From contig JAVCCB010000041.1 in assembly GCA_030765685.1 (NCBI GenBank), positions 75,549-139,548 of the forward strand: a DNA stretch of 64,000 nt. Reading direction: 5' to 3'. This DNA is from Candidatus Tantalella remota (GTDB lineage: Bacteria; Omnitrophota; Gorgyraeia; Tantalellales; Tantalellaceae). A model generated the notes under the pieces. The model saw only the letters and a list, made by a program, of their open reading frames with translations, ran no database searches and was not told where the DNA came from. Positions 15,225 through 47,260 of the stretch are shown here, one piece after another; the stretch's first letter is position 1; every line of letters begins with the position of its first letter. Both the position numbers and the translations under genes were made by a program.

Positions 15225-16976
15225 TCACTTATCATACAAACCGCTCGCTTCAAGCTCTGAGAGGAGATACTCTTTATCCACTTCCACAATAATGTGATCC
15301 CAGGGCAGAACGTCTTCCTTCGAATAAGTGCGGCACGCATATTCCGTCATGTCCACTCCCTCAGAGTCAAACGCTTCTTTCCATATATTGATGTTGAAAC
15401 TTTCATTCCACCCGTCCATCCTGGCGCCTTTTTGCCACGCGCGGTATATGATGTCCGAGATCTCGCGCCCCCCTCTCGATATACACGCTTCCAAAAGCGC
15501 CTGGTCAAGGTCATGAAATTCGACTTTTACCTTTTTCGAGGATCCGGACCTTAGAACATCTTTTGTCCGCGACATGCCTTCCGGGTCTTTCATCCCGATC
15601 CACTGCAGGGGCGTATGCGGTTTCGGGATAAACGGGTTGACGCTGACGCGTATCTCAGCGGCACCGCCGGAAGATACTTTTTTCTTGAGCGCGGATATCT
15701 CTTTTCCGAGAGCAACTATTTTCCCTGCCTCATCTTCCGGCTCACCGGGAAACCCTACCATAAAATAAAGTTTCAGCCTTCTCCAGCCGTGACTGAAAGC
15801 CAGAGAAGCTGACTTGCAAAGCACCTGGGTATCTATTTTTTTACCGATAGCTTCTCTCACCTCACCTGAGGCCGCTTCCGGCGCAAAAGTCAGTCCGGTC
15901 TTGCGTATCGCTGATATCATCTCAGGAAGTTCGTAAAAAGCCTCATCCACCCGCAGCGACGGTATCGACAGCGCTACTCCTTCACCGGAAAAATCCTTGT
16001 TAAGAGCCTTGATCAACTCCGCCAGACGCGGATAATTAACACTGGAGAGCGACAGAAGAGCTATACTTTCATAGCCCGTCAGCTCGTATGTCTTCCTGCA
16101 TATATCCCTCACACGCTCGGGCGTCCTTACCCGAACAGGACGATTTACTATTCCCGCCTGGCAAAAGCGGCATCTGTTGGGACACCCCCGCATGATCTCC
16201 ACGGCGATCCTGTCATGGACGACCCTGACCAGGGGAACTATCTGCTTTTCAGGATAATACGCGTTCTCCAGAGACGCAATCGATACCTTTCGTATCTTAT
16301 CCGGGATCCCGTCCTCAACAGCTTCCAGTCCCATAAATTTACCTTCCGCTTGTATAGCCCGGTAAAAACGCGGCACATACACTCCCTCCAAAAGCGAAAG
16401 CTCTTTCAGTATCTCGTTCCTGTCGTCAGTTCTTTCTTTGGCTTTCCTGTACGCTTCGATAAACACGGGTAAAGCTTCCTCGGCGTCACCGATAAGAAAA
16501 GCGTCCACGAACGCGCTCATAGGTTCAGGATTCGATGCGCAGGCGCCTCCCGCGATAACAAGCGGTTCTTCGTTACCCCTGTCCTTTGACAGGACGGTGA
16601 CCCCTCCGAGCGAGAGCATGTCCAAAACGTTCGTATACGTCAACTCATACGAAAGGCTGAACCCCACAATATCGAACTTGTCCATGTCCGTCCTTGATTC
16701 AAGACTGAACAGCTTCAGGCGGTTCTCGATAAGCTCTCCCCTCATATCCTCCCACGGCATAAACACCCGTTCACATACGATTTTCTCCTGTTCATTTAAG
16801 AGATGATACAAAAGACGCAGCCCCAGATAGCTCATCCCCACTTCGTACGAGTCGGGATACGCGATAAGCACCGAAGTCCTGTCCGGAGAGAATCCCTTGC
16901 GTACGCTGTTGGTCTCTTCGCCTATATAGCGTCCCGGCTTTTGTATTTTATGCAATATGTCTTGGATAGTATTCAT
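15225..16976 (-). CDS. B12-binding-like / radical SAM domain protein (TIGR03960-like)
   Basis: 583 aa; N-terminal B12-binding-like region, CPNRCRFCQAG (CxxxCxxC radical-SAM cluster motif). Confidence 0.7.
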   Translation of the reverse strand: MNTIQDILHKIQKPGRYIGEETNSVRKGFSPDRTSVLIAYPDSYEVGMSYLGLRLLYHLLNEQEKIVCERVFMPWEDMRGELIENRLKLFSLESRTDMDKFDIVGFSLSYELTYTNVLDMLSLGGVTVLSKDRGNEEPLVIAGGACASNPEPMSAFVDAFLIGDAEEALPVFIEAYRKAKERTDDRNEILKELSLLEGVYVPRFYRAIQAEGKFMGLEAVEDGIPDKIRKVSIASLENAYYPEKQIVPLVRVVHDRIAVEIMRGCPNRCRFCQAGIVNRPVRVRTPERVRDICRKTYELTGYESIALLSLSSVNYPRLAELIKALNKDFSGEGVALSIPSLRVDEAFYELPEMISAIRKTGLTFAPEAASGEVREAIGKKIDTQVLCKSASLAFSHGWRRLKLYFMVGFPGEPEDEAGKIVALGKEISALKKKVSSGGAAEIRVSVNPFIPKPHTPLQWIGMKDPEGMSRTKDVLRSGSSKKVKVEFHDLDQALLEACISRGGREISDIIYRAWQKGARMDGWNESFNINIWKEAFDSEGVDMTEYACRTYSKEDVLPWDHIIVEVDKEYLLSELEASGLYDK

Positions 16977-33413: not shown

Positions 33414-36400
33414 TTATGCCGCTATAAGTGCTTTTCTTGCGGCCATATTGAACTCTTCTATAGCCTCATAGCTCATTCTAGACGCTTCCGGGAGTACCAG
33501 GACTATATGTCTGAGTACTTTTGCTATACCGCTTGCTGTATCCGGAAGGTCCAGATCGCTGCCAAGCATGAGCTTATACTGATTTTTGATGAACCCGACT
33601 ATCGGGCCGTATGTCATATGCATATCTTCTTCGTTCACGTTCTCGGGGATATTCGACGCTGCAAGAGCGATATTTACCATACCCGTGACCCGGAGAAGAT
33701 ATTCCTCCATGTCACCCTTGGGGACTTCAACATCAACATGCCCTTCCCCCTCAAAATCAGGCGCTTTGCAGTAAACCGCTATGAGGGATTCATCGGATCC
33801 TCTATCACTTGAGAACGGTCTAGCTTTTATATCAGCTTTAGACCTTTTATCCAGAATATCCGCGTACTTGCGTATGATACTTACCTGCGACCTGCTTAGT
33901 TTCGACTGGTCATATTTGATAGTGTATGTCCTGTCTTCCTGAAGCTGAGCGTGAAGCAGATCAATCGCCAAAACCGCCGCCTCCTCCGCGTCTTTAGTAG
34001 TCTCGGGGATTCCCGTGGGTGAGCCTTTGAGGTTCTGCATCTCTGATTCAAGTTTCAGAAATCCCCCGAGAGAACCCCCTTCGGGAATAAATAATCCACG
34101 GCTTAACAAAACTTCCTTTATGTCATCATCTAGGATAAGTTTTTTATCAGGGTTTGCCCCTATCTTGATCAAAACTTTCACGGCAGAGAACACCTGCACA
34201 ACCAGACACTCGTCAAAAGAAGCCATGTCTTTGCCAGGATTAGTTTCGCTCAGAAAACCTTCCCTATCCGTTGGCACAGCTAATCGAATGAATCCCGATT
34301 CGCTTGCCATCTCATGTCCGAGCACACCTCGTATACATTTTTTAGCGCTATCATCGTTAGTGTTTTCAATATTACGTATTACCTCTCCGTCCGGATGTGT
34401 CAACATTCCGCCTGAATGATACCAATACGCTATTGTTCCGTCCTGATAGTAAGTCTCTCCCTCCGGATTCCCAACAGGCTCTTTTGGCAACATTTCCCTG
34501 CTAGGGTTCGCACGTCCATATATAAACTTATTGTCTCCATCCAGTTGCATACTAAATATCGCCGCGTCATCCAATGAACGACTTATACTCTCCGAAAGAG
34601 CGTATCTAAAAGGTCTCTCTTTCCCTGAAAGCGTCTCACTCTCGGACTGGACTTTTATATCCGGAAACTCTTTCGGACGAATAGAACCCTTGGGTTTATC
34701 ACCAAAAGAACTGCTCTCTTCACCCGTTCCCTGCCGCGCCTCGGTGCCTTTATCGGGAAGATCCGCAGGTGAACCTTTGGTTTTTTTCTCCTGTTCTTGT
34801 GCTATTTGAAATCCCGCAGTTACTATATTACCGCTTCTGCCGGGTCCCCCTGAAGGAGTGATCTTATGATAATCCGCTCGTCTTATTATCCCCAGGCCCG
34901 CTCCGCTTCCCTTGCCTCTTGTTCCATTGACTCCGTCCCAAAAATCTATGAAATCCTGAATGTGATCCCTGGGCTTAACGCTGGTATCAATAGGACTTCC
35001 CACATCCACGCCGTTGATCTCTATATATTTCTTACCGTTTTCATGTTTATAACGAATAATAAGAAATCCTCCGGAAGAGTACCTCGAGATATTACTTGAG
35101 ATCTCCCATGCCGTCCTTGCCACACCATTCAAAGGATATTCATCCTCAGGGACCAGAGGATCAGTATTGTTGCCAACGCTTCCAAATACCGTGCTTCCGA
35201 TAGCAGTCATTTCTTCTTCTGTAAATCCTATCCGCTCAACAAAATCCTTATTCGGCCTGCCCGACCATATCGTCTTTATACCTGATACGGAAAACCCGGG
35301 TTGTATTCTACGATGTCGTTGGGGAGCGATAAAAACCACCTTTACATCCGGCATCTGTTTGAGCTTCTTGATGGCGGTTCCCAACTGTTCGTCATCGCCT
35401 TCCAATAATGCTTTCCATGATTTGTTTCGTAGATCTAAAAAGTTTTCCTCCCCGGGAACATCCACACCGAATTTTTCTAAAGCTTTTTCCTCGGCGTCCA
35501 TATTTGTCTCTGGAAGACCCCCGGGTGAGCCTTTGGGTTTTTCACCAACAGAAATACTCTCTTCGCCCGTCCCCTGCCGCGCCTCGGTTCCTTTATCAGA
35601 AAGATCCACGGGTGAGCCTTTGGTTTCCCTTCCGTGTTTCCCGGCTAAGACCTTTATTTCAGTTACGGGCTCATCGGTCAACTCGAACGGTTCTTTTTCT
35701 CCGACGATCACCGGGGACTTTACCGTTCTGAGCAAGATCACATCAGACGGAAAATACTTGAGGTCCGTCTCTTCCAGCGGGTCGTCATAACGCCAGGACT
35801 TCATACCGATAGCTGTTTTGTAATTCCAGTCCCCCTTGATGACCACAAGGTCCAGCTCCGCAAACTCCTTTAATATATCCAGCTTTCCCGCCGCGTACAG
35901 GTCTTCACCATCAGTAAAAGCATCCGTGGCGGTCATCTGAAGGGTCCCGCTCCTTAACGCCTCCTCTAGAGTCACAGCAAGCGACATTGTCTCGGAAGTA
36001 TCCGCCATCGTGTTGATAAAATCGATCAAGCCTTCTTTTGTGACATCGCTTATCATAAACGGCATTTTGCGCGTAAAGAGTTTAACAGTCTTACCTTCTT
36101 CAAGTATCCGTGCCGCGATCATAAGGTCTATCAAAAGCTCCCCGTAATTATCCAGGACTATCCCTACTTTATTTTTTCGCTCCAACAGCTTCACTGCCTG
36201 AGACAGATGCTCGCTCTCTTCCTCCCGGGTAAATAATTTTCGAGCTTCTGCTGCTATGTCGACATTCTCGCTTTTAAGCAGCGAGTCGAACCTGTTAAAA
36301 GACGCGCTGAGCTTTAAAAGCTGTGAGGGCGTCAGGGACTCAAAAAGAGATACATGCTCTCTGTACAGACTTAAAGCAAAACCATTCAACCGGTCGCGGG

Positions 36401-39400
36401 CAGCGCCAAAAGGATCTTCCACAAACCTGCCCGCCGAGCCGAATATCTCTGCCATCGCCCGCGGGTACCGGATCTTTCGAGCCGATCCCGTTCTCACCGT
36501 CTCAGCTTCCTCCCTTTTTATCCTGACTATATTCCTCACCACTTCCGCGGTCGTCTCAAGCTCTCCACGCTCGTTCGTCACGACAAAATCGAATTCCCCG
36601 CTGTGCTCCATCTGATCTTTCGCGTTTCGCATACGAACGGTGATCTCTTCTTCTGTCTCAGAGCCTCTCTTTTTTAACCTTGACGTCAGCTCATCCATAC
36701 TCTCGGCTTTTATGAAAATACTTATATTGTTTTTGGGGAACATCTCCCGTATCTGCCTGGCTCCTTCGGGATCGACATTTACTATGATGTCTTTCCCGCC
36801 GGCTATAAGGTCGTCAATATGATCTTTCTCCAGCCCGCAAAACTCTCCCGGGCGCACTTCCACGTCCTGCAGAAAGGCCCCCTCATCTTCCTTTTCCTTA
36901 AAGTTCTCCTTTGACGTGAAAAAATAATGGACTCCGTCTTCCTCCATCTCCCCCGTTTCAAGAGAACGGGGTTTTCTTGTAGTCGTGCTTACCGCCCTCT
37001 CAAGGCCGGGCAGCCTTGCTGTCAGTTTCGCTATAGCCGCGTCCTTACCAGCACCGCTCGGACCCGATACTATAATGATAAGCGGATCCCCGGCCGGATG
37101 ATTAAAAAGTCCTTTTTCCGCCTCTATTCCGGCCATTTCAAACCCTGCCCTTTTAGCTTCATCACCGGCATTTTTACCTATTATCCCGAAAACTACCGAA
37201 AACGTTTTTCTTATGTCCTCCGCCCAGAAATCTTCACCCGTTACCTGAGTGACAATGGGCTCTCTCTCTGTCTCCGGAACCTCGGCGCCCAGCTTCCGCC
37301 TGCAGTATTTGCTTATGGGAAGATGTATGTCGTCGGCAAGAGCCTCCCACATATCCCTGCCGGCATTCGGGTTCTTCGCGGCCTCGTATCTTACGTCCCT
37401 GTTAACATATCCGGGCAACTGACTTAAAACTACCAGATCCTCATGGTAAGTCGCGCTGTTCCTGGCGGCGAAAAATAAAGGAACCCAGTGCCCCTCTTCC
37501 AGGGATATCCGCAGTACTTCCTTCAGGATGGACGGATCTCTGGATACACTTGCCAGGGTACTTAGAACCGCTTCCGGCGTAGAGTTCTCGGGAAAGGCTG
37601 CCTTCCCGGAGTATGCTTCGTCTATAACAGTGCCAAGATCGTATCCGGAGAGGCCTGATATCCTCCTGCCGCATATATCAAGGATACCGGGCAGATAAGA
37701 ATGAAAAACTGCTATGGCTTCAGCGCGAAAACGTTTCAACTCCACCAAAGGAGGCCCCTTGTCACCATTAGCTTCAATATACTCCCCGCCTATGACCCTC
37801 GTCTCTCGCCCGTAGAACCGCTGGACATCGTCACGAAAAGACAGAATAAAGTCATAATAACGGTCCGCGAATTCCCTATCCTTTTCCGTCAAAGGTATAT
37901 CAAGATATTTCAATGTGCCTAAAAAGAACGAGAAATATTTGAACATTCCCGCGTCATGTTTCAGATTGATGTCCGCGTCGCTTACCCCCCGGGTCCGCTC
38001 CTCCGCTATGAGATTACCCATCGCGAAGAAAAGAGCCGTTTCAGCTTTTTTCGAACGGATCTCTACGGGGGATAGGCCAAGAATATCCCCCAGAGAGGCT
38101 TCAGTTCCAAGCGGTGTAGCGTCAAGTATCATCATCCTATCATAAGGATAATCAATAAAGAGTTCACGCATCTCATCTTTTAAACCGTGCCTTACCTGTA
38201 TGGTCTTGCCGGTAACAATCTTTACAGCGTCAAGAAATGGCCCGATACCCGGGTCTTTCCTGCCGGACTCTACGATAAAAAGATCAAGGTCGGAATAAAA
38301 GTTGGATTCCTCACGGGATACGCTGCCGCTTACAAGAACATCCGTCGAAGGCCTCAGGTAGATCTCTTTCAGTTTCAAAAGGACGGCACGGTCCAAAGCA
38401 GCATACTGCCTTCCCGTTTCCCTTCCTTCGGGCCGTCCTGTCTCGAGAGCCCGATCCCTCACCCTTCCTTTTTCTGAAGCATATTGACGGGCACGTCTCG
38501 CGAGATATGGATCCACTTTCGCGGCGATATTTAAAACATTACCGGGATCTACGGCTAAGACCTCGCCCTGTATTATCTTCCGGTACTCTTCGACCGGCAA
38601 AAATATGGGAATGATCCCGCTCGCGTCACTTTTATCCCCTATCATTATTTCGCTGCCGTTATGCATGAAGAACTGCACCTTCCTGAAGTCTCTTTCCGGC
38701 GACTCTTCCAGGAGATCCCGCGCCTTATTGAGAAAATGATTGAAATCCATATCAATACATACATCGCAGAAAGAAGGAGCTGTCTCCATGAAACGGTTTA
38801 TTTTCTTCTTACGACGTTCCATAAGCGATGTTATCGGGCGGTCCTCGTCCCCGATCTCGCCAAGGTCGATCTTGTCAAGATTTATCCCGTCACGGGCCAT
38901 ACAACACAGCGACTGGGTCGAGTTAGCCAGGACTATTATCCTTGTAGCACCTATAAGGCACTCATCAAAATCCTTCTTTGGCGTATAGGTGACTCCGTAC
39001 GGACCTGCTACCCTGAAATCCGAATCTTCATATCTCTCTCTTGCCTCCTTGAACTTTTTCATCGCCGCCTCCAGAAGATGCGGCTTTTCTTTATAGAACC
39101 CCTGATCGAACGTCTTCCTCACCGCTACCCAGTTCACGCCTGCTTTCTTCATTATCCGTATAAAATCTTCCACTTCACTATGGTTCTCAGGCATTATAAG
39201 GAACGTCGCTCCAATAAGCAGCTCCCCATCCCTTCCCAGTTCATGCCTCTTCTGAGAGATCTTTCCGAGGTTTTCCACCAGTCTGTCGAACGTGAATGCG
39301 CGTTTCTTGGGACGATGCACTTTGACCCTTGTCTCATTGGTAGCTGCGTTGACACTCACTCGTATGTGATCCATATACCGGCTTATTACGTCTATTAACC

Positions 39401-41558
39401 GGTCGTTAAGCCCGTCGCCGTTTGTCTCAAGAGTAAGCTTAAATCCCAGGGCATGGGCATGCGACACTATCTTTAGAAAATTCGGGTTCGTAAGCGGCTC
39501 ACCGCCGCCCGTGAACCTCAGGCTTTTTACGCCCATTTGCGCGAAATCGTCCAGCATCTTAATTCCCTTATCCAGGTGAATTATCTTTTCATGGCTTTTC
39601 CGGAAAGGCGCGTCAAAACACATCACACAGTCGTTGTTGCAAAGATTCGAAATATCAATATCCACCCTGACCGGCGCGATCTCACCCGTAACCAGATGTT
39701 TTCTTAAACCCTCAATAAACTCCAGCGGATCTTCGGGACAGAACTTTGACGCGTTGGTCCTGAACAGTGATATCCGTTCGCCGTCAAAAGCGGCCATCCC
39801 GTCCCAGTTATTAAAATCACTCACTACCGACCTGTGACCAGATACAGAATTCTTAGTTTTACGGACAATTTTTTCGATGAGTTCTTTTACTTCTGGACGC
39901 TTATCTTTAGGAATATTGTAACGATGAAGAGGACGTTCCTCTCCCTTTTCTCCGACCTGTAGACGGATTTCACTTACAGACTTTATTAAACCCTTTACTA
40001 AGTCCGCAGAAAAATTCATTATTGTGTCGTTAAATCGATAGTGGCTGGTTTTTTCGGCGGGAACGAATATTCCCAGGTCTTTGAGTATCTCGAATTCCTT
40101 AGCGACTGTTCTTTTAGCGAACGGCCTTATCTCGGTCATTTCGCGGACGGATATCCCCTCCCCGCTTAGCGCCTTAGCAAGAAGCCCTTCATCATCCCTT
40201 ATCATCTCCAGAAGATCCGCGGGTGAACCTTTGGGAACATTCTGATCCAATGTTTCTCTATTTATTTTATTTCGTAAAATCACCATATTCCCCGTCTGTG
40301 AAGCTTTCCGATGTATACTATCCACTTCTTGCATATACCACATTCCTTGTCCAGCCCCACCGCTTGCTGTCACGCCGTATCCGCCCCATGCCGCTTCCAT
40401 ACCATTCGCAACTCTCTCATCATTCGTAACCCATCTCGTGCTCATTGGACCATTTCCCTTATCAACACTGCTGGCCTCAACAAAATCCTGTTCAAACCGG
40501 ATAATTAAAAATCCTTCAATTGCATGTTGCCATATATTTCGAGCTAGTTCTTGTATTGCCACGGCCATTTTATCAGGCCGCTTCATGCCGTGGTCATTCG
40601 TATATACACCGATCATGTCAATTTCTTCATCTGTCAAACCGATTTTTTGAAGTGCCTGGATAGGAGACTCTGTGAATGCGTTAAGGTGCGCTATATCCTT
40701 TAGTCCCAATCTCTCACCCAATCCTGATTTATTACCGGTATTGCGTGCTGAGGAATAAAAAACTTTAGCATTATGGTCTTTTTCCATTATATTAATGATC
40801 TCTCGAATCCTATCTTCATCCCTTTCTTCTTTTCTTACCTCGCTCCACAATTCTTTCCGCAACTCCGAAAATCTCTTTTTTTCGGGCTTCACTTTCTTGC
40901 CGCTAACCTGATAAAACCTCATCCCGCTGTTTCGAGCAAGACGTATCTTCTCATTCCTTCGGCTCGCTTCCCAAAACTCTCCAGTAAAATAATTGTGTTT
41001 GTTGGCGTTAATAACAGGCTCTATTTTATTAAGGAAGATAGCGTCTTCGAACGGAAGCTCGCCGCGCAAAATAACTCCTTCATTAAGAAGTATCAGCCAT
41101 TCGAAAGCCTTAGCGACCGTGTCGTTCACATAAAGGTTCAGGGGAAGTTCGTTAGTACGGGCGGGCGGAAAGTTATTTAATATTACTTCTTTAATACCCT
41201 GGTATCTGAATCTCTCCTTCTTCTTGAGTATCTGCATCAACGCTTCTATGTCCTCGTGAAGAACGGACCGGAGGAATGTTATGTCATCCGCGGCCATATT
41301 CTCATCTATCAGATATTTGCCGGAAGAAAGAAGAAGACATTTAGCGTCGTTATTATCAAGAAGTCTCCTAGCATCGTCGGAATCGGCTAACCTGACATTG
41401 GAATGCCTGTAAAGCTCGGCAAGGACTTTCCTTTTGACAATAGGATTTTGGGCGGCGGGAAGCGTACCAAGACCATAACTGAACGTGTTCAATGAAAACG
41501 TCAGAATAACGATTAATGATATGGTTTTTTTCAGTACTCTCTTCATTTTCCTTCCCAA
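33414..41558 (-). CDS. giant 2714-aa multidomain protein of unknown function (signal anchor, GHKL-like, radical SAM/SPASM-like, GlnE-like nucleotidyltransferase, guanylate kinase, DUF89-like phosphatase, second GHKL-like segment, long C-terminal region)
   Basis: Single stop-free 8145-nt ORF. N-terminus MGRKMKRVLKKTISLIVILTFSLNTFSYG. CNNDCVMC (CxxxCxxC) at aa 640-647 plus downstream cysteine pairs. GSVSREESNFYSDLDLFIV at aa 1078-1096. GPSGAGK...TTTRKPR...EDGVHYFF at aa 1499-1546. VLDNYGE...VIKGDWNYK at aa 1802-1914. Recurrent KGSP linkers. Confidence 0.8.
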   Translation of the reverse strand: MGRKMKRVLKKTISLIVILTFSLNTFSYGLGTLPAAQNPIVKRKVLAELYRHSNVRLADSDDARRLLDNNDAKCLLLSSGKYLIDENMAADDITFLRSVLHEDIEALMQILKKKERFRYQGIKEVILNNFPPARTNELPLNLYVNDTVAKAFEWLILLNEGVILRGELPFEDAIFLNKIEPVINANKHNYFTGEFWEASRRNEKIRLARNSGMRFYQVSGKKVKPEKKRFSELRKELWSEVRKEERDEDRIREIINIMEKDHNAKVFYSSARNTGNKSGLGERLGLKDIAHLNAFTESPIQALQKIGLTDEEIDMIGVYTNDHGMKRPDKMAVAIQELARNIWQHAIEGFLIIRFEQDFVEASSVDKGNGPMSTRWVTNDERVANGMEAAWGGYGVTASGGAGQGMWYMQEVDSIHRKASQTGNMVILRNKINRETLDQNVPKGSPADLLEMIRDDEGLLAKALSGEGISVREMTEIRPFAKRTVAKEFEILKDLGIFVPAEKTSHYRFNDTIMNFSADLVKGLIKSVSEIRLQVGEKGEERPLHRYNIPKDKRPEVKELIEKIVRKTKNSVSGHRSVVSDFNNWDGMAAFDGERISLFRTNASKFCPEDPLEFIEGLRKHLVTGEIAPVRVDIDISNLCNNDCVMCFDAPFRKSHEKIIHLDKGIKMLDDFAQMGVKSLRFTGGGEPLTNPNFLKIVSHAHALGFKLTLETNGDGLNDRLIDVISRYMDHIRVSVNAATNETRVKVHRPKKRAFTFDRLVENLGKISQKRHELGRDGELLIGATFLIMPENHSEVEDFIRIMKKAGVNWVAVRKTFDQGFYKEKPHLLEAAMKKFKEARERYEDSDFRVAGPYGVTYTPKKDFDECLIGATRIIVLANSTQSLCCMARDGINLDKIDLGEIGDEDRPITSLMERRKKKINRFMETAPSFCDVCIDMDFNHFLNKARDLLEESPERDFRKVQFFMHNGSEIMIGDKSDASGIIPIFLPVEEYRKIIQGEVLAVDPGNVLNIAAKVDPYLARRARQYASEKGRVRDRALETGRPEGRETGRQYAALDRAVLLKLKEIYLRPSTDVLVSGSVSREESNFYSDLDLFIVESGRKDPGIGPFLDAVKIVTGKTIQVRHGLKDEMRELFIDYPYDRMMILDATPLGTEASLGDILGLSPVEIRSKKAETALFFAMGNLIAEERTRGVSDADINLKHDAGMFKYFSFFLGTLKYLDIPLTEKDREFADRYYDFILSFRDDVQRFYGRETRVIGGEYIEANGDKGPPLVELKRFRAEAIAVFHSYLPGILDICGRRISGLSGYDLGTVIDEAYSGKAAFPENSTPEAVLSTLASVSRDPSILKEVLRISLEEGHWVPLFFAARNSATYHEDLVVLSQLPGYVNRDVRYEAAKNPNAGRDMWEALADDIHLPISKYCRRKLGAEVPETEREPIVTQVTGEDFWAEDIRKTFSVVFGIIGKNAGDEAKRAGFEMAGIEAEKGLFNHPAGDPLIIIVSGPSGAGKDAAIAKLTARLPGLERAVSTTTRKPRSLETGEMEEDGVHYFFTSKENFKEKEDEGAFLQDVEVRPGEFCGLEKDHIDDLIAGGKDIIVNVDPEGARQIREMFPKNNISIFIKAESMDELTSRLKKRGSETEEEITVRMRNAKDQMEHSGEFDFVVTNERGELETTAEVVRNIVRIKREEAETVRTGSARKIRYPRAMAEIFGSAGRFVEDPFGAARDRLNGFALSLYREHVSLFESLTPSQLLKLSASFNRFDSLLKSENVDIAAEARKLFTREEESEHLSQAVKLLERKNKVGIVLDNYGELLIDLMIAARILEEGKTVKLFTRKMPFMISDVTKEGLIDFINTMADTSETMSLAVTLEEALRSGTLQMTATDAFTDGEDLYAAGKLDILKEFAELDLVVIKGDWNYKTAIGMKSWRYDDPLEETDLKYFPSDVILLRTVKSPVIVGEKEPFELTDEPVTEIKVLAGKHGRETKGSPVDLSDKGTEARQGTGEESISVGEKPKGSPGGLPETNMDAEEKALEKFGVDVPGEENFLDLRNKSWKALLEGDDEQLGTAIKKLKQMPDVKVVFIAPQRHRRIQPGFSVSGIKTIWSGRPNKDFVERIGFTEEEMTAIGSTVFGSVGNNTDPLVPEDEYPLNGVARTAWEISSNISRYSSGGFLIIRYKHENGKKYIEINGVDVGSPIDTSVKPRDHIQDFIDFWDGVNGTRGKGSGAGLGIIRRADYHKITPSGGPGRSGNIVTAGFQIAQEQEKKTKGSPADLPDKGTEARQGTGEESSSFGDKPKGSIRPKEFPDIKVQSESETLSGKERPFRYALSESISRSLDDAAIFSMQLDGDNKFIYGRANPSREMLPKEPVGNPEGETYYQDGTIAYWYHSGGMLTHPDGEVIRNIENTNDDSAKKCIRGVLGHEMASESGFIRLAVPTDREGFLSETNPGKDMASFDECLVVQVFSAVKVLIKIGANPDKKLILDDDIKEVLLSRGLFIPEGGSLGGFLKLESEMQNLKGSPTGIPETTKDAEEAAVLAIDLLHAQLQEDRTYTIKYDQSKLSRSQVSIIRKYADILDKRSKADIKARPFSSDRGSDESLIAVYCKAPDFEGEGHVDVEVPKGDMEEYLLRVTGMVNIALAASNIPENVNEEDMHMTYGPIVGFIKNQYKLMLGSDLDLPDTASGIAKVLRHIVLVLPEASRMSYEAIEEFNMAARKALIAA

Positions 41559-41827
41559 ATGTTAGGCCAACTTTTTAAAAGCATTTAGTAAGTTTGGTTA
41601 AAAAAAGTACACCTCTATCGCATCCCCACTCCTAAGGAAATGCGGCTATGTACTTAGATCAAACCTGCAAATTTTAATGAACAAATGTATTTGCTTCTCT
41701 TGAGAACCTCTATTCCTCACAAAGGGTACTTCTCCCCTATTAGACCATTATAGCAGAAGTAATGGTTAGGTCAAGAAAAAGTTAAATACCTATTGTTTTC
41801 TTAACTTATCCACACCCCTCCTTCAGG

Positions 41828-42019
41828 GACGTTTGTCATTTTAAACCTGGGGCGTAAATAATTTTAATTCTAGACCTGTCCCTCCTGCTATTTTCAAGTC
41901 CTTTTCCACTCCCTAAAGCTTGATAAATATCAATTTTATAGCTAAAAATATGGCTGGGGACAGGCCTAGACACAAAATTAGGGACGGGTCTGGGATTAAA
42001 TCGAGAAACGTCCCTAAAA
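41828..42019. promoter_or_regulatory. array of five GGGAC(A/G)KKTCT-like motifs in both orientations, in the spacer upstream of the giant gene
   Basis: gggacgtttg (41828), agacctgtccc (about 41869-41883, inverted), ggggacaggcctaga (41956), gggacgggtctgg (41981), gaaacgtccc (42004, inverted; overlaps the ftsA stop). The second and third copies form an inverted pair about 85 bp apart. Confidence 0.35.
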
Positions 42020-43066
42020 GTAGCGTTCGATGAAGGAAAGGGCTCTATTTATGCCCCTTTTGAGGAGATTGCCCTCAAGACGGGTTTTCTGCCTGTTTAT
42101 GTGCAGGCAGTCGAGTATGCCGAGGCTTCCTATATATCCGGTCCTGTCCGGAGGAAGGTCCTCAAAAGGACGGGATATACATATGCCGGTTTTTACGGGG
42201 ATAGTAAAACTATGTTCCAACAGTTCCACCATATCGTGCATGAGGGCCCCTCCCCCGACGATAATTATCTTCCTCGCTTTTCCCCACGCGGGCAGGGTGG
42301 TTATCTTCGGGACCAGCTCTTCGAGCTTCTCACCATCAAGGGTGCCGTTATCCCTGATAATATCTCCCGTGCCAGTATTAAAGACCTTGCAGCCGTCAAG
42401 TATGCCTCTGGTAAAGATCATAACTTCCATCATATCCCTGCATATGTCTATCAGCGCCACGCCTGATTCCCTGTCCTCGGGACTCAGCACCCTGTGCGCC
42501 GCGGCAAAACCGGTAAAGACAAAACCCGCCGGCAGAAAACCTGCCTGGGATATACATTTTGACATATTCTTCACGACGGAAGAATCTATGGTAAGGATGT
42601 TGACCCGGGATTCAAGCTTAACGCCCTCAAGGTTACGCGGGTTCTTTATCTCATCTTCCCCGTCCAGGGAAAACCCTTTTACTATCCTGTGAAGGGGCTC
42701 CTTCTCTAGGGGTATCTTCGCGGCGGAGCCGATCTCGACGCACCTTTTAACGTCCCTCTCCGTCACTTCCCTGCCGTATTTTGAAAGGAGCAAAGAACCG
42801 GAAGAAAGCATGAGCTTTACAGAGCTTGAGCTGACCGCGGTATAAACGTCCTCTATCTTTTTGCCGGTCTTTTCCCTGAGCTTATTGAGGGCTCCGGCTA
42901 TAGAATCTGTGGCCATCGCAGCGTCAACGACTATACCCTTGCGAAAGCCCTTGGCATCCACGCGGCAGAACCCGTCAGGGACATAATCACCGTTTTTGGT
43001 CCAACTCGCGCTCACCAGGAATATACCGTGATACCCCGCGTCCATTACCGCAAAATGACCGCCCAT
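42014..43066 (-). CDS. ftsA: cell division protein FtsA (short form, 350 aa)
   Basis: Actin fold with a 1C-subdomain-like insertion, KIIIVGGGALMHDMVELLEHSF, downstream of ftsQ. Confidence 0.8.
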   Translation of the reverse strand: MGGHFAVMDAGYHGIFLVSASWTKNGDYVPDGFCRVDAKGFRKGIVVDAAMATDSIAGALNKLREKTGKKIEDVYTAVSSSSVKLMLSSGSLLLSKYGREVTERDVKRCVEIGSAAKIPLEKEPLHRIVKGFSLDGEDEIKNPRNLEGVKLESRVNILTIDSSVVKNMSKCISQAGFLPAGFVFTGFAAAHRVLSPEDRESGVALIDICRDMMEVMIFTRGILDGCKVFNTGTGDIIRDNGTLDGEKLEELVPKITTLPAWGKARKIIIVGGGALMHDMVELLEHSFTIPVKTGICISRPFEDLPPDRTGYIGSLGILDCLHINRQKTRLEGNLLKRGINRALSFIERYF

Positions 43067-43081
43067 ACGCTGCGTGTGCTC

Positions 43082-43954
43082 CTATTTCTTCTTGAGAGAG
43101 ATGACTGCCGGTGCCCCGAACCTGAGATCGATATATTTTATATCTTCCATCTTCATCTTCGGATCCGACATGACTTTTTTGAGTTCCACGATCTTTTCTG
43201 AAAAATCATCGGTGCCCATTTTAACGATGACACCGGATATCCCGAGGACTATGTTCTTCCTGTCGGAGATATCTATGTACTCGATCTGTTTTTTATACCC
43301 GCTCATCTTCTTGTTAAGACCATCCAGAAGAACAAGAGCCTGGGCCAGCGACCTGTTATCTACCTTATCGCCCCGGGAAGGCGTATTAATGAAAAAGTTC
43401 AACCCTTTTATTTTTACAAGCGTTCCCTTCGTCTGGCCTATCGAGAGGACAATACCCTCAGAATCTATCACGATTCCGCCCGCCGTGTCTATGACGGCTG
43501 CCGGCAGACGGGATATGATGTCCACCTCTATAGTGTCCGGCATCCTTCTGCGCACTTCCACTTTTCGGAGCTGGGGATAATCGCTCTTTATAACGGTGCG
43601 CACCTGTTTAAGGTCCACCTCGAATATATTCCTTCCCTTGTACAGTTTTTTCAGCCTGCTCTCCCCCTTCCAAAAAGAATAGTCCCTGTCCTTATTGACG
43701 ACTATCTCCTTTACAGCAAAAAAACGGCTGTTCGTAAAAAAATACCATATACCATACGTACTACCCGCTATAAGCGCGCCGCAGATGATACCCACGAGTA
43801 TGACCTTAACCGGCAACCCGCTGCCGCGGGAAGCGGATGCTCTCTTTTTTTTCTTCTTTGGCTTCTTTACAGTCCTTCTTTTTGCCACAACGTGTTCTCC
43901 TTTCGACCGTTCAACTTTCCTTGCGGGCCAATGCCCCCAGAAGCATCTTAACAC
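43082..43954 (-). CDS. ftsQ: FtsQ/DivIB (POTRA domain) cell division protein; annotated start overlaps ddl, true start probably internal
   Basis: Basic cytoplasmic N-terminus, single TM, POTRA-like FFAVKEIVVNKDRDYS, between ddl and ftsA. Confidence 0.7.
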   Translation of the reverse strand: MLRCFWGHWPARKVERSKGEHVVAKRRTVKKPKKKKKRASASRGSGLPVKVILVGIICGALIAGSTYGIWYFFTNSRFFAVKEIVVNKDRDYSFWKGESRLKKLYKGRNIFEVDLKQVRTVIKSDYPQLRKVEVRRRMPDTIEVDIISRLPAAVIDTAGGIVIDSEGIVLSIGQTKGTLVKIKGLNFFINTPSRGDKVDNRSLAQALVLLDGLNKKMSGYKKQIEYIDISDRKNIVLGISGVIVKMGTDDFSEKIVELKKVMSDPKMKMEDIKYIDLRFGAPAVISLKKK

Positions 43955-44840
43955 ATAATCCTAAAAAATCCACCCCCGCCGCGCCGGCCGCCATCGGCAG
44001 TAGGCTTCGTTCCGTAAGGCCGGGAATGGTATTGACCTCAAGAACATACACTTTCCCGTCCTCCGACAACCTCATATCGACCCTGGAAAAATCCTCACAC
44101 CCGAGGACGTTATGCGCTTTGAGTCCCGCGTCCTGCGCTTTTAGATAGGCCTCACTCTCCAGTTCAGCGGGAACGACGTATTTGGTATCTCTTGAATGAT
44201 ATTTCGCCTCAAAATCATATATCCCTTCGGCGGGCAGGATCTCAACGACCGGCAGGGCCTTCCCATCGAGCACTCCTACCGTTATCTCTCTGCCCGGGAT
44301 AAACTCTTCTATGATTATATCTTCATCGAACTCCGCAGCGATAGACACAGCTTCGTCCAGCAAGCTTTTCTTCTCCACCACCGACAGGCCGACACTCGAC
44401 CCCTCAAACCTGGGTTTTACGACACACGGCACAGCCGCCTCGACTGGTACCGGATGATCGCGTTTGGCTACCTTATATCCCGGTATGTTCAGCCCCTTTT
44501 CCTCGAAAAGCTTTTTCGAAGCAAGCTTGTCCAAAGCCAGATGGGACGCTTCAGGTCCGGATCCGGTATAAGGCACTCCTTCATCCTCCAGCATCCGCTG
44601 AACGGTCCCGTCCTCCCCGAACCTGCCATGCAACGCTATAAAAACCACGTCTATGCCGGCTTCCTCTACCACGCGCATAAAAGGATCTTCATTTACCTCG
44701 ATAAAAACCGGGTCAAACCCCGCCCCCTCCAAAGCTCCCTGGACAGTTCTTCCGCTTTTAAGGCTTATCTCCCTCTCACTTGAAGGTCCACCGGCAAGAA
44801 TACCTATTTTGTATTGTTTTAGCTTATCAATATCATTCAT
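43911..44840 (-). CDS. ddl: D-alanine--D-alanine ligase
   Basis: 309 aa ATP-grasp; FIALHGRFGEDGTVQ and C-terminal EVNTIPGLT motifs. Confidence 0.9.
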   Translation of the reverse strand: MNDIDKLKQYKIGILAGGPSSEREISLKSGRTVQGALEGAGFDPVFIEVNEDPFMRVVEEAGIDVVFIALHGRFGEDGTVQRMLEDEGVPYTGSGPEASHLALDKLASKKLFEEKGLNIPGYKVAKRDHPVPVEAAVPCVVKPRFEGSSVGLSVVEKKSLLDEAVSIAAEFDEDIIIEEFIPGREITVGVLDGKALPVVEILPAEGIYDFEAKYHSRDTKYVVPAELESEAYLKAQDAGLKAHNVLGCEDFSRVDMRLSEDGKVYVLEVNTIPGLTERSLLPMAAGAAGVDFLGLCVKMLLGALARKES

Positions 44841-44976
44841 GACATACTCTATTTCAAGTTAAGATCAAGATTTAGATTAAGAAAAATTACAGCAGCTAAA
44901 CCTTAACCTCGATCTTAACCTTATTCTCTACAATTTCCTATTCCCTATTCCCCGTTCACAGTTTACAGTTCACTGT

Positions 44977-45894
44977 TCACAATATCCTAATCTCCGACTC
45001 GAGATCTACCGAAAATTTTTCTTTTACTTCCTTCCTTATGTCGTACATAAGAGACATCACGTCAGACGCCTTCGCTCCTCCGGTATTTATAATAAAATTA
45101 GCGTGTTTTTCTGATACTCTGGCTCCCCCGTGAGAGCACCCCTTCATTCCCGCGGCATCTATCAGCTGTCCGGCGGTCTTTCCCGCCCCTTCGGGATTGC
45201 GAAATATGCATCCCAGACTTTTACCATCAAGGGGCTGTTTCTCCATCTTCTCAACAAAATAATTTTTAAGCCTTGATTCAAGCTCCCTGGGGTCCTCTTC
45301 TTCAAACTCGAAAACCGCTTCCGTTATAACATCTTTCTCGTCGCTAAGCGAAGACCAGTGCCAGGCGAAATCTATTTCCCTTTTACCTACCCACCTCGCC
45401 TCCCCGTCCGGATCCATTACTCTGACACGTACAAGCATATTGCTTACCTCCGTACGGTAGGAAGCGTTCATAAACACCGCGCCGCCCACCGTCGCGGGTA
45501 TACCCACAAGACCTTCCAGCCCGGCAAGGCCGTTGCTGCACGTCGTGGAGATGAGATCCGGCAGGGACACCCCCGCCCGTGCCATTACCATCGTATCTCC
45601 CAGGTCCTCTTCCATAAAATACTGGCTGTTAAGTTTGATAAGAACGGTCTCCAGGTCCGCGTCAGGAAAAAGGATGTTACTCCCTCCGCCAACGACCATA
45701 CTTCGTACTCCCCTCTCGGTCAAAAGCCTAATAAGACCGGCTAAGGTCTCTTCGTTCCTCGGCTCTATCCAGACCACTCCGCGGCCTCCGACCTCGATGG
45801 CGCTGCGCGGAGCCAAAGGCTCACCGAAAAATATGATATCCCCGACCTCTCTGCAATACTCCTCAATAGCGTTCCTGTCACTATCCGTTATCAT
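44977..45894 (-). CDS. murB: UDP-N-acetylenolpyruvoylglucosamine reductase
   Basis: 305 aa FAD-binding; GGGSN and C-terminal MurB motifs. Confidence 0.85.
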   Translation of the reverse strand: MITDSDRNAIEEYCREVGDIIFFGEPLAPRSAIEVGGRGVVWIEPRNEETLAGLIRLLTERGVRSMVVGGGSNILFPDADLETVLIKLNSQYFMEEDLGDTMVMARAGVSLPDLISTTCSNGLAGLEGLVGIPATVGGAVFMNASYRTEVSNMLVRVRVMDPDGEARWVGKREIDFAWHWSSLSDEKDVITEAVFEFEEEDPRELESRLKNYFVEKMEKQPLDGKSLGCIFRNPEGAGKTAGQLIDAAGMKGCSHGGARVSEKHANFIINTGGAKASDVMSLMYDIRKEVKEKFSVDLESEIRIL

Positions 45895-47260
45895 TCCTGG
45901 CCTCGTTTATTTCTTTAAGTACGGGAAGCGCTATTTCCCTTATGTCCCCCGCTCCCAGTATAAGTACAGTATCGTTCTCCTTGGCAATTTTTGAGATATA
46001 CCCCGGGATCATGTCCTTTTCGACAAAACCGAACATCTCAAAATCCTTTTTGTCCATCCTTTCCCATATATCGCGTATCCCCACGCCTTCGGTGGGGTCT
46101 TCGTGGGCCGAATAAACATCCGTCATAATAAGAACGTCCGCGTCAGAAAAGCATCCCAGAAAATCTTCCGCCAGATCATTGGTCCTTGAATGGCGGTGCG
46201 GTTGAAAGACCGCCACTACCCGCCCCTTCGTGTACCCCTTCGCGGCGCGTATTACCGCCGCCAGTTCGGTCGGATGATGCGCGTAGTCTTCTATTACCTC
46301 TATGCCCCCGGAACTTCCCACGACGTCGAACCTTCTGCTTACTCCCGGAAAGGTCCGCACCGCGGACGCGATGTCTTCGACCCCGACACCCGCCTCTATG
46401 CTGACGGCGGCGGCACCAAGTATATTCATCAAGTTATGCCTTCCCAAAAGAGAACTTTCTATTCTTCCCAACCTGCTGCCCGCGAAAAACAACTCAAAAG
46501 ATATGGACCCTTCCCAGTTCTGGTCCTCGCATGTCACGTCAAAATCCCCTTCTATGCCGAAACTTGTAGTGCGTGCCCTCGCGCCGTCAACAAGGCCCGA
46601 AAGAACCCGATCCTCTCCGTTATAAAAGATCATCCCGTCGCCGGATACGCGTCCGGCAAACTCACGATACGCGCCATGCAGGTTCTCTATGGTCCCGTAG
46701 TTCTCCATATGCTCGCGTTCAACATTAGTTATCAGGCCATGAGTGCATCCTATCTTTCTGAAGAACCCGTCGCTTTCATCTACTTCAGCCACCAGGATAT
46801 CCTCACCCCCGCACTTCGCGTTACCCCCCATTTCCCGGACCTCTCCGCCCAGGACAAAGGTAGGATTTCTGCCACTCTTTTGCATTATATAAGATATCAG
46901 AGACGACGTTGTCGTCTTTCCGTGGGTACCCGTGACAGCGATAGAGACGGGCGCCTCGCTCATCAAAAGTCTCAGGAGCTCCCCCCTGGTTATGACCTGT
47001 ATATCAAGTTCCCTGGCCTTTATCATCTCCGGATTGGAGTCTCTTATGCAGGAAGACACTACGACAAGGTTGGCATCCTCGGGGATATGACCGGAAGCAT
47101 GCCCTTGAAAAATAGTCACTCCTCTTCCGGCCAGGTCTTCAGTCAGATTGTTGAGTGTGAGATCCGACCCTGACACGGTAGCGCCCTTTTCCACCATGAT
47201 CTGAGCCAAAGCGCTCATACCGATCCCGCCGATCCCTATAAAATGTATCTTCTTTTTCAT
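45881..47260 (-). CDS. murC: UDP-N-acetylmuramate--L-alanine ligase
   Basis: 459 aa; HFIGIGGIGMSALA N-terminus, Mur ligase GTHGKTTT P-loop. Confidence 0.9.
   Translation of the reverse strand: MKKKIHFIGIGGIGMSALAQIMVEKGATVSGSDLTLNNLTEDLAGRGVTIFQGHASGHIPEDANLVVVSSCIRDSNPEMIKARELDIQVITRGELLRLLMSEAPVSIAVTGTHGKTTTSSLISYIMQKSGRNPTFVLGGEVREMGGNAKCGGEDILVAEVDESDGFFRKIGCTHGLITNVEREHMENYGTIENLHGAYREFAGRVSGDGMIFYNGEDRVLSGLVDGARARTTSFGIEGDFDVTCEDQNWEGSISFELFFAGSRLGRIESSLLGRHNLMNILGAAAVSIEAGVGVEDIASAVRTFPGVSRRFDVVGSSGGIEVIEDYAHHPTELAAVIRAAKGYTKGRVVAVFQPHRHSRTNDLAEDFLGCFSDADVLIMTDVYSAHEDPTEGVGIRDIWERMDKKDFEMFGFVEKDMIPGYISKIAKENDTVLILGAGDIREIALPVLKEINEARNDNG

Follow-up and report, generated by a model that had tools for sequence, protein, structure and literature searches.

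The 64,000-nt window analysed here, a stretch of contig JAVCCB010000041.1 from Candidatus Tantalella remota, a member of the Omnitrophota from Ace Lake, Antarctica, that lives by anaerobic fermentation (PMC8542988), harbors one giant gene within a run of housekeeping genes. The ORF listing of the window revealed one minus-strand frame free of stops (33414..41558) with 2,714 codons counted from a TTG; the likelier start is an ATG at 41546 with GGAAGG just 5' of it, leading to a product of 2,710 amino acids (aa). All residue numbers given here refer to this ATG, and those of an earlier sequence-only reading of the locus are higher by four. The product matches exactly GenBank entry MDP8298988.1 from the metagenome-assembled genome (MAG) of this organism, so that the protein is already deposited, under the generic name 'ARMT1-like domain-containing protein', and all motifs quoted in the earlier reading were located in it. 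With the frame confirmed and the product identical to the deposited protein, the proposal of one genuine modular, enzyme-rich gene was borne out, and we regard the giant ORF as one gene of Candidatus Tantalella remota.

Searching with the full-length product retrieved 15 other long proteins (1.5–4.2 thousand aa, kaa) from Omnitrophota MAGs and metagenomes, with a Pfam content entirely unlike that of the query, namely GT1, PPDK/PEP-utilisers, B12-type radical SAM, NUDIX, HD, deaminases, PHP, methyltransferases, ROK, adenylate kinases, and HEAT. Common to the query and all 15 relatives were only aa 1–220 and aa 2519–2710 (BLAST identities of 41–61%), and a module of about 120 aa containing the peptide KGSPADLL was additionally shared with two of them. 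We therefore refer to the two ends as N-terminal and C-terminal caps (NTD and CTD). In an exhaustive phmmer search with both ends of the query against 1.84 billion cluster representatives, 357 proteins passed a threshold of E<=1e-3, 262 one of E<=1e-10, and 124 one of E<=1e-30; the longest had 5,727 aa, and no protein longer than 6 kaa was among the best 150 matches; a word-index search with the NTD alignment found three fragments only. Hidden Markov models (HMMs) of both ends, run on 161 retrieved sequences, detected both ends in 60. In every one of these 60 the NTD starts within the first residues and the CTD ends no more than 13 residues from the C-terminus, the stretch from cap to cap forming a continuum of lengths between 28 and 5,291 aa. 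At about 670 aa, the smallest intact members consist of a signal peptide, the NTD, a class I methyltransferase, and the CTD. Pfam scans of 45 members identified methyltransferases, radical SAM, phosphoribosyltransferase plus HAD, histidine phosphatase plus PHP plus AAA_28, metallophosphoesterases, GT20, hexokinase, HPr, PPDK_N, adenylate kinase, AAA_5, and WD40; altogether, 67 Pfam families were distributed over 35 of the scanned members, mostly occurring once each. The family plan is a Sec-type signal followed by LATLPASQNP, a helical NTD of about 200 aa, a payload of one to many enzyme domains of cytoplasmic type, and an alpha/beta CTD of about 200 aa, and it is the caps that define the family, the payload being interchangeable. 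Many proteins classed by HMM as carrying only the NTD have a divergent tail still ending in L-[ITV]-[AS]-A, and several classed as carrying only the CTD start with a signal peptide and an N-domain that has diverged; since the terminal signatures are kept, the plan reaches beyond the 60. These conserved caps, belonging to a family of at least 357 clusters (nearly all of them placed in Omnitrophota) with almost arbitrary cargo, had been overlooked in the sequence-only reading, which had described the last 400 aa as matching nothing. This holds as far as Pfam is concerned, but the last 210 aa or so form a strongly conserved family domain.

The query carries both caps at its extreme ends. Its N-terminus comprises an n-region (MKRVLKK), an h-region of about 11 aa (ISLIVILTFSL), and a c-region (NTFSYG), with a predicted cleavage site before LGTLPAAQNP. 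In 89 of 91 complete N-termini of the family, a positive n-region is followed by an h-region of about 11–13 residues and a polar c-region ending in C-Y-G, directly after which the near-invariant L-A-T-L-P-A-S-Q-N-P is found. The hydrophobic segment noticed earlier is real and kept across the family as an export-type N-terminus, and its layout is that expected of a cleavable Sec signal rather than of a 20-residue anchor. Neither a twin-arginine motif nor a lipobox was found in the family N-termini; a lipoprotein reading was also rejected on the grounds that the Cys before YG, though common, is absent in the query and others. No convincing transmembrane segment was detected in the cargo, covering about 100,000 residues of capped proteins. 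At the other end, the family consensus A-[KR]-x-A-L-[ITV]-[AS]-A-COOH, with L at position -4 in 88 and A at position -1 in 82 of 92 sequences, is matched by the terminal ARKALIAA of the query. AlphaFold models computed from family alignments predicted a mostly helical fold with a small sheet for the NTD (predicted local distance difference test, pLDDT, of 83) and an alpha/beta fold for the CTD (pLDDT 84, predicted template modelling score, pTM, 0.83). The caps had no Pfam match and no strong NCBIfam match, and searches of PDB sequences with profiles of both resulted in nothing meaningful. A zincin-like fold for the NTD, as in the PA-binding N-terminal domain of anthrax LF, which would call for a significant structural match and a conserved HExxH or equivalent, was considered and rejected. 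The HEDIE motif of the NTD is lost in divergent members and is therefore not a catalytic metal site. The features of the gene are summarized in the table.

Table. Features of the giant gene and its promoter, listed in the direction of transcription (coordinates of the 64-kb window).
Feature	Residues	Position	Strand	Remarks
Near-consensus sigma70-type promoter		41747..41774	minus	TTGACC-16-TG-TATAAT, 11/12 matches; about 200 nt 5' of the ATG
Sec-type signal peptide (predicted)	1–25	41472..41546	minus	layout as in 89/91 complete family N-termini
N-terminal cap (NTD)	26–229	40860..41471	minus	LATLPASQNP-type motif, SSGKYL, HEDIEALMQI, NKHNYFTGEFW
HATPase-like module 1	230–437	40236..40859	minus	phmmer 3e-5 to aa 2104–2240; GC content at third codon positions (GC3) 0.365
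'KGSPADLL' module	438–565	39852..40235	minus	recurrent in further long proteins of Omnitrophota: P0008 (three copies), P0012 (two), and P0161 (two)
Radical-SAM module with N-extension and 5-Cys auxiliary region	566–960	38667..39851	minus	Pfam Radical_SAM
Putative pol-beta-type nucleotidyltransferase and long helical region	961–1485	37092..38666	minus	sub-threshold NTP_transf_2
Guanylate-kinase domain	1486–1675	36522..37091	minus	Pfam Guanylate_kin
DUF89/ARMT1-like metal-dependent phosphatase domain	1676–1976	35619..36521	minus	Pfam; DNYGE, KGDWNYK
Low-complexity KGSP linker repeats	1977–2040	35427..35618	minus	overlaps first repeat arm 35527–35626
HATPase-like module 2	2041–2260	34767..35426	minus	bracketed by 100-nt direct repeats
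Module without detectable relatives	2261–2500	34047..34766	minus
C-terminal cap (CTD)	2501–2710	33417..34046	minus	GEGHVD, LRVTGMVNIALAASNIP, IEEFN...ARKALIAA-COOH

Between the caps, three of the enzyme domains named in the sequence-only reading were confirmed by Pfam matches above the gathering cutoffs together with their characteristic motifs: radical SAM (PF04055, E 1.2e-16, 61.7 bits versus a cutoff of 29.5; CNNDCVMC of the CxxxCxxC type at 636–643 and GGGEP at 680–684), guanylate kinase (PF00625, E 3.1e-31, 108.9 bits versus 25.2; P-loop GPSGAGK at 1495–1501 and TTTRKPR at 1521–1527), and ARMT1-like/DUF89 (PF01937, E 1.2e-33, 117 bits versus 25; metal-site motifs DNYGE at 1799–1803 and KGDWNYK at 1904–1910). 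For the guanylate kinase, the NCBIfam equivalog guanyl_kin (TIGR03263) scored 155 bits, narrowly below its cutoff of 160.45, and orthology to the housekeeping Gmk is therefore not asserted. Five Cys residues spaced C-x17-CC-x44-CxxC (863–930) follow the radical-SAM core and are conserved in three homologues. Given this pattern, a SPASM/twitch-like auxiliary cluster, as suggested earlier, may be present, but Pfam SPASM did not match and the NCBIfam models of the SPASM family matched only partially and far below their cutoffs. The best NCBIfam match of the module was a tungsten-cofactor maturase model (86 bits versus a cutoff of 380), and the viperin and MoaA models matched the core only; judged by these scores, the module is not assignable to a subfamily. 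The nearest solved structures (2e-8 to 3e-6) were viperin, DesII, and BlsE, which act on nucleotides or nucleotide-linked sugars.

Two further assignments are tentative. The claim of a nucleotidyltransferase (NTase) like that of GlnE/GlnD is supported by a signature (GSVSREESNFYSDLDLFIV at 1074–1092; SGSV-R-x2-SN-x2-SD-x-D at 1073–1088) in which the pol-beta pattern hG[GS]-x9-13-D-h-[DE]-h is represented by SGSVSREESNFYSDLDLFIV. Three homologues keep its G-S-x10-D-x-D residues and also D137/D143 of alignment A5 without change, but the profile match stays below the cutoff. Neither the single sequence nor a 3-sequence profile of this region matched a PDB sequence, and no stand-alone versions were found in a scan of metagenomes. 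Likewise, the two segments described as GHKL-like are mutually paralogous (phmmer 3e-5), but the HATPase profiles remained sub-threshold and a PDB profile search gave no match. The 'KGSPADLL' module had no Pfam match; from its sequence, it looks like a winged helix-turn-helix (wHTH).

A search with the cargo alone revealed two closer relatives, P0041 (1,643 aa, both caps present) and P0160 (MFH1846360.1; 1,863 aa), the latter having its own signal-like N-terminus, no caps, and an added adenosine deaminase. Aa 566–1485 of the query, covering N-extension, radical SAM, 5-Cys region, NTase, and helical region, are collinear with both, as are aa 1662–1976 with DUF89, the two blocks sharing 45–51% identity and the DUF89 domain itself 46–47%. 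The motifs CxxxCxxC, GGE, C-x17-CC-x44-CxxC, the NTase signature, DNYGE, and KGDWNYK are all conserved in P0041 and P0160. At the position of the guanylate kinase, both lack such a domain; as it fills the gap between two collinear blocks, it is a lineage-specific insertion. Based on this collinearity, radical SAM, NTase, and DUF89, together with the helical region, form a conserved three-enzyme unit; add-ons to it are the guanylate kinase, both HATPase-like modules, the wHTH-like module, and the segment at aa 2261–2500. The idea that the whole domain set forms one dedicated pathway was thus not upheld. What remains of the proposed nucleotide-processing megaenzyme is a core that is plausibly nucleotide-directed, given its similarity to viperin, DesII, and BlsE and its purine-handling companions: since both accessory enzymes, the guanylate kinase here and the adenosine deaminase in P0160, handle purines, we infer that the cassette may process a purine nucleotide or some phosphorylated metabolite related to it. 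The contigs of P0041 and P0160 (L015 and L016, both Omnitrophota) harbor further long multi-enzyme genes nearby, encoding proteins of 3,100 aa (AAA/ClpB-like plus M50), 2,084 aa (PPDK_N), and 1,309 aa (carbamoyltransferase), and a secretin gene lies about 3 kb upstream of P0160 on L016.

The junctions between the modules share a linker sequence. The peptide K-G-S-P-[AV]-D-L occurs at five junctions of the query (aa 439, 1976, 2005, 2257, and 2507) and also opens the recurring wHTH-like module in P0008, P0012, and P0161. At the nucleotide level, a 100-nt direct repeat with 86% identity (35527–35626 and 34684–34783; blastn E 1e-28) flanks HATPase-like module 2, a 24-nt copy of the linker DNA with 96% identity is found at the junction of HATPase-like module 1 and the wHTH-like module (40211–40234), and a 53-nt copy with 77% identity lies just before the CTD (33982–34034). 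Codon composition is mosaic: GC3 amounts to 0.51–0.57 in the central block from radical SAM to DUF89, close to the 0.57 of neighbouring housekeeping genes, to 0.49–0.51 in the caps, and to 0.37–0.42 in the HATPase-like modules, the wHTH-like module, and the module at aa 2261–2500. Junction repeats and mosaic composition together show a modular gene built by insertion or duplication at a common linker sequence, which suggests that modules may be shuffled by recombination there; such repeats would offer a concrete mechanism for domain shuffling.

With respect to distribution, a pattern scan covering one genome for each GTDB species revealed 11 loci, nine of them in Omnitrophota MAGs, one in a MAG labelled 'Planctomycetia', and one on a 3.4-kb contig binned as Nanoarchaeota; the latter two are possibly mis-binned. 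A mobile or viral origin was rejected, as no family members were found on viral contigs. Some loci deviate from the plan. In P0052 (L017 1–1268; JGI 3300017989, Ga0180432_10106563), NTD and CTD are joined by 28 aa and an in-frame TGA lies exactly between signal peptide and NTD; its candidacy as a cargo-less 'ancestral' member was dismissed because of this TGA and a degenerate C-terminus, and it is probably a decaying remnant. A family member at L001 10001–22893 (JGI 3300033143) is split into two ORFs that share 16 nt, one of 2,693 aa with the NTD (P0013) and one of 1,608 aa whose end is a perfect CTD; the split is due to a frameshift, to an error in sequencing, or to a true two-gene arrangement. 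One open frame at L013 449–6526 (GCA_043823005.1, JBDRBG010000129.1) contains two in-frame NTD copies about 1,800 aa apart, and P0016 has its NTD at aa 448–680, away from the N-terminus; both may be fused tandem family genes. P0161 (1,467 aa, Omnitrophica MAG) is a long, signal-bearing protein with repeated units of about 95 aa and two KGSP/wHTH modules. Over its last 60 or so residues, it shows a weak match to the final part of the CTD profile (domain E 0.09), and its terminal residues are FILSAA. This hints at a possible wider superfamily of C-terminal tails.

Within the window, the giant gene lies in a co-directional housekeeping run, namely murC-murB-ddl-ftsQ-ftsA-like upstream and proC-PNP-ileS-lspA-lgt-rluD-aroA-mreB-PBP2-rodA downstream. 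The promoter listed in the table is located in the 455-bp spacer upstream of the gene, which probably has its own transcription start; the leader showed no Rfam match, no riboswitch, and no unusual structural stability. Directly upstream of this promoter (41774–41747), the spacer to the ftsA-like gene contains at 41822–42018 four units of about 20–26 nt with AGGGAC/GTCCCT in alternating orientations (41822–41847, 41863–41883, 41980–42000, and 41993–42018; arms 75–86% alike). The hexamer occurs four times in 190 bp versus 34 times in 64 kb, and the units may form an operator array. The division and cell wall (dcw) cluster (42014–47260; murC, murB, ddl, ftsQ, and ftsA-like) terminates at the giant gene, its ftsA-like ORF being short (350 aa) and matching only the SHS2_FTSA insert domain; ftsZ was not found in the 64-kb window by tblastn with an approximate E. 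coli FtsZ core and a scan for the signature GGGTG[ST]G. Downstream on the same strand are ATPases of the PilB and PilT type of type II secretion systems/type IV pili (9816–11543 and 12036–13097); a HAMP-GGDEF protein is encoded at 13134–14549, and 15225–16976 encodes another radical-SAM protein, this one stand-alone and with a Radical_SAM_N2 domain. None of the flanking ORFs was common to any two of 13 family loci or to the window, so that no dedicated partner is encoded in cis. The cassette homologues P0041 and P0160 are not syntenic with the window and lie in unrelated neighbourhoods; adjacency to ftsA, which the sequence-only reading had proposed to check in related genomes, is therefore incidental and not a family trait.

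Taken together, we read the locus as a genuine gene of an Omnitrophota-specific family of 'capped enzyme carriers' with proposed export by the Sec pathway and a handling role of the caps, a reading to which we give a somewhat better than even chance. The recurring linker sequence would let recombination duplicate or swap modules, the signal peptide would move the unfolded chain over the cytoplasmic membrane, and the two caps would provide any payload with a common handling, e.g., secretion, surface attachment, or docking. The substrate of the cassette might then be a purine nucleotide or a phosphorylated metabolite of a related kind, with the guanylate kinase supplying the substrate, radical SAM performing radical chemistry, the NTase transferring a nucleoside monophosphate, and DUF89 dephosphorylating. 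These enzymes depend on ATP, S-adenosylmethionine (SAM), a reductant, and Fe-S assembly; they would therefore most likely act in the cytoplasm of a host or prey cell or at an energised interface rather than in the free periplasm. Omnitrophota have been described as ultra-small and host-dependent or predatory (PMC10066038), a lifestyle that makes delivery into a host cell the most economical resolution of the cofactor paradox, as we infer. A bolder version, which we rate as rather improbable, takes the caps for a universal adaptor that exports practically any cytoplasmic enzyme, Fe-S radical-SAM enzymes and ATP-dependent kinases included, into a host or prey cell that provides the cofactors, with payloads re-assorted by recombination at the linkers; the ALxAA-COOH end might then serve as a degron destroying copies left in the cytoplasm of the producer. 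If true, this would be a new Sec-dependent system for effector delivery and metabolic hijacking specific to Omnitrophota.

Several points weigh against the favoured reading. Exported radical-SAM and ATP-dependent kinase domains would have no obvious cofactors outside the cytoplasm and a twin-arginine motif is missing, so the idea of host delivery or of export may be wrong, export itself being predicted from sequence features; hexokinase, HPr, and similar cargo likewise depend on cofactors of the cytoplasm. No significant structural relative turned up for either cap model, and the family loci keep no common partner gene beside them. Some module assignments are below the gathering cutoffs, namely NTP_transf_2 (PF01909; E 0.01–0.036, 14.9–16.6 bits versus 21), HATPase_c_2 on module 1 (E 0.015, 15.7 bits versus 27.4), and HATPase_c on module 2 (E 0.047, 14.6 bits versus 26.4). 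The substrate proposal relies on weak radical-SAM similarities over the core only, and the exact gene is found on a single MAG contig, so that the insertions specific to the query have no independent assembly support.

The last point also bears on the suspicion that mis-assembly or stop-removing sequencing errors have fused several ordinary genes, which would be in line with the mosaic codon composition and with the relative P0013 being split into two ORFs. However, both caps are at the correct ends of a single frame, the same plan is found in 60 independent proteins from many samples, the order of the cassette is repeated in the separately assembled homologues P0041 and P0160, and 8.1 kb without a stop at about 47% GC are not attributable to chance; a simple join would, moreover, not leave AT-richer modules flanking the centre on either side. 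The architecture seen across the family and the collinear homologues make an artefact very unlikely, indeed the least credible of all explanations considered. The main rival to the exported carrier is instead a membrane-tethered, cytoplasm-facing metabolon, in which the anchor would be uncleaved or unused for export, the caps would oligomerise or scaffold, and the payload would work as a fused nucleotide-metabolism assembly line in the cytoplasm of the producer itself. All cargo enzymes are of cytoplasmic type and need ATP, SAM, or Fe-S, their catalytic motifs are conserved under selection, no Tat motif is present, the central cassette has host-like codon usage, and nearly half of the long Omnitrophota proteins have been placed as membrane-anchored and facing the cytoplasm in a preprint of 2026 (10.64898/2026.06.07.730766). 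Set against this, the h-region of about 11–13 residues, the positive n-region, and the small residues at -3/-1 correspond to a cleavable signal, whose layout predicts the N-terminus inside and the body outside with no further transmembrane helices to return it, and even the uncapped cassette homologue P0160 has a signal-like N-terminal peptide. We consider the tethered metabolon unlikely.

An anti-phage enzyme combining a prokaryotic viperin (pVip) with a nucleotide kinase and producing a chain-terminating ddh-nucleotide (3'-deoxy-3',4'-didehydro) would take up the earlier suggestion of a defence-like effector. PADLOC pVip models match at E 1.2e-19, the best being 'viperins associated with kinases', viperins are among the nearest solved structures, and a nucleotide kinase is present in the same polypeptide. 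The PADLOC match, however, spans only the generic radical-SAM core (model positions 8–137 of 262), NCBIfam viperin reaches 60 bits versus a cutoff of 180 (positions 7–151 of 281), and the tungsten-cofactor maturase model scores higher with 86 bits. The module has a conserved 5-Cys auxiliary region, which viperins are not known to have; the kinase is a lineage-specific insertion absent from P0041 and P0160, the neighbourhood is housekeeping (dcw, proC, ileS) and no defence island, and a signal peptide is not expected on an intracellular defence enzyme. As a full-length viperin or pVip match was not obtained, the suggestion was dropped, and we regard it as highly improbable. A polymorphic-toxin effector similar to MARTX, in which the conserved termini would engage a translocation device, the central enzymes would enter host or prey, and proteolysis at the linkers may release them, seems quite unlikely to us, but less so than defence. 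In the MARTX toxins of Vibrio and relatives, conserved ends bracket a strain-variable mosaic of enzyme effectors in a huge secreted polypeptide, and conserved N- and C-terminal regions around a variable enzyme set are shared with the capped family. MARTX toxins, however, have long glycine-rich repeat ends, a dedicated type I secretion system nearby, no Sec signal, and a cysteine protease domain that frees the effectors; no such Pfam matches were found in the query, and its neighbours are dcw, proC, and ileS.

Turning from these rivals to the exported carrier reading and its place among known systems, similarity to viperin/pVip lies in the radical-SAM core, closest to the viperin type among solved structures, and in the associated nucleotide kinase, whereas the core-only matches far below the cutoffs, the Cys-rich auxiliary region, the export signal, and the non-defensive context set the query apart. 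PANK4-type fusions, reportedly described by Huang et al. in 2016, also have a kinase fold directly upstream of a DUF89 phosphatase in one chain, as the sequence-only reading had pointed out; in the query, however, a guanylate kinase takes this place, inserted into a radical-SAM-NTase-DUF89 cassette of greater age, and the conserved partners of DUF89 are radical SAM and NTase, not the kinase. Cargo proteins of the type IX secretion system likewise combine a signal peptide with a conserved C-terminal sorting domain (PMC4804311), but this is a beta-sandwich of about 80–100 aa restricted to Bacteroidota, in contrast to the alpha/beta CTD of about 200 aa, which is paired with an equally conserved NTD.

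The closest parallel is found in the same phylum. Signal-bearing long multi-enzyme proteins of Omnitrophota have already been reported, as 'Archaeovorins' (West-Roberts et al. 2023, bioRxiv 10.1101/2023.11.21.568195) and as class 1 'multi-enzyme metabolic clusters' (Nielsen & Lui 2026, bioRxiv 10.64898/2026.06.07.730766). In these giants, too, one chain tiles many unrelated enzyme Pfams (radical SAM, methyltransferase, GT1, PPDK_N, NUDIX, HATPase_c, HEAT, kinases), mostly together with a signal peptide or transmembrane helices, and they share with the capped family the paradox of cytoplasmic-type enzymes predicted outside the cell. The giants, however, comprise at least 10–30 kaa, usually with many transmembrane helices, and are mostly unique in sequence, whereas the capped proteins range from about 0.65 to 5.7 kaa, have cargo without transmembrane helices, and carry two conserved terminal domains. 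The query accordingly resembles the Archaeovorins in its Omnitrophota origin, signal peptide, and many enzyme Pfams, but not in length (2,710 aa) or in multiple transmembrane helices. We found no mention of the cap domains in either preprint, and neither the capped family of 0.65–5.7 kaa with its two terminal domains and motifs, nor the radical-SAM-NTase-DUF89 cassette, nor linker-repeat evidence for shuffling was found in the open-access literature searched. The earlier statement that no described system has this domain combination therefore stands for the capped family, but has to be qualified by the reported multi-enzyme proteins of the phylum. The Omnitrophota, ultra-small bacteria that are abundant and uncultured, are believed to live on other cells, and their long multi-enzyme proteins are a recognised puzzle, combining cytoplasmic-looking enzymes with extracellular topology. 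Besides the cassette, a conserved three-enzyme unit linked to purine-handling enzymes, it is the size range of the family that matters here: members of about 670 aa keep the same two caps as those of 5.7 kaa, so that ordinary constructs, in place of proteins of 100 kaa, suffice for studying localisation, processing, and the function of the caps, making the puzzle of 'exported cytoplasmic enzymes' experimentally tractable. The best reading of the capped enzyme carriers is that they are related in kind to the multi-enzyme giant proteins reported from Omnitrophota.

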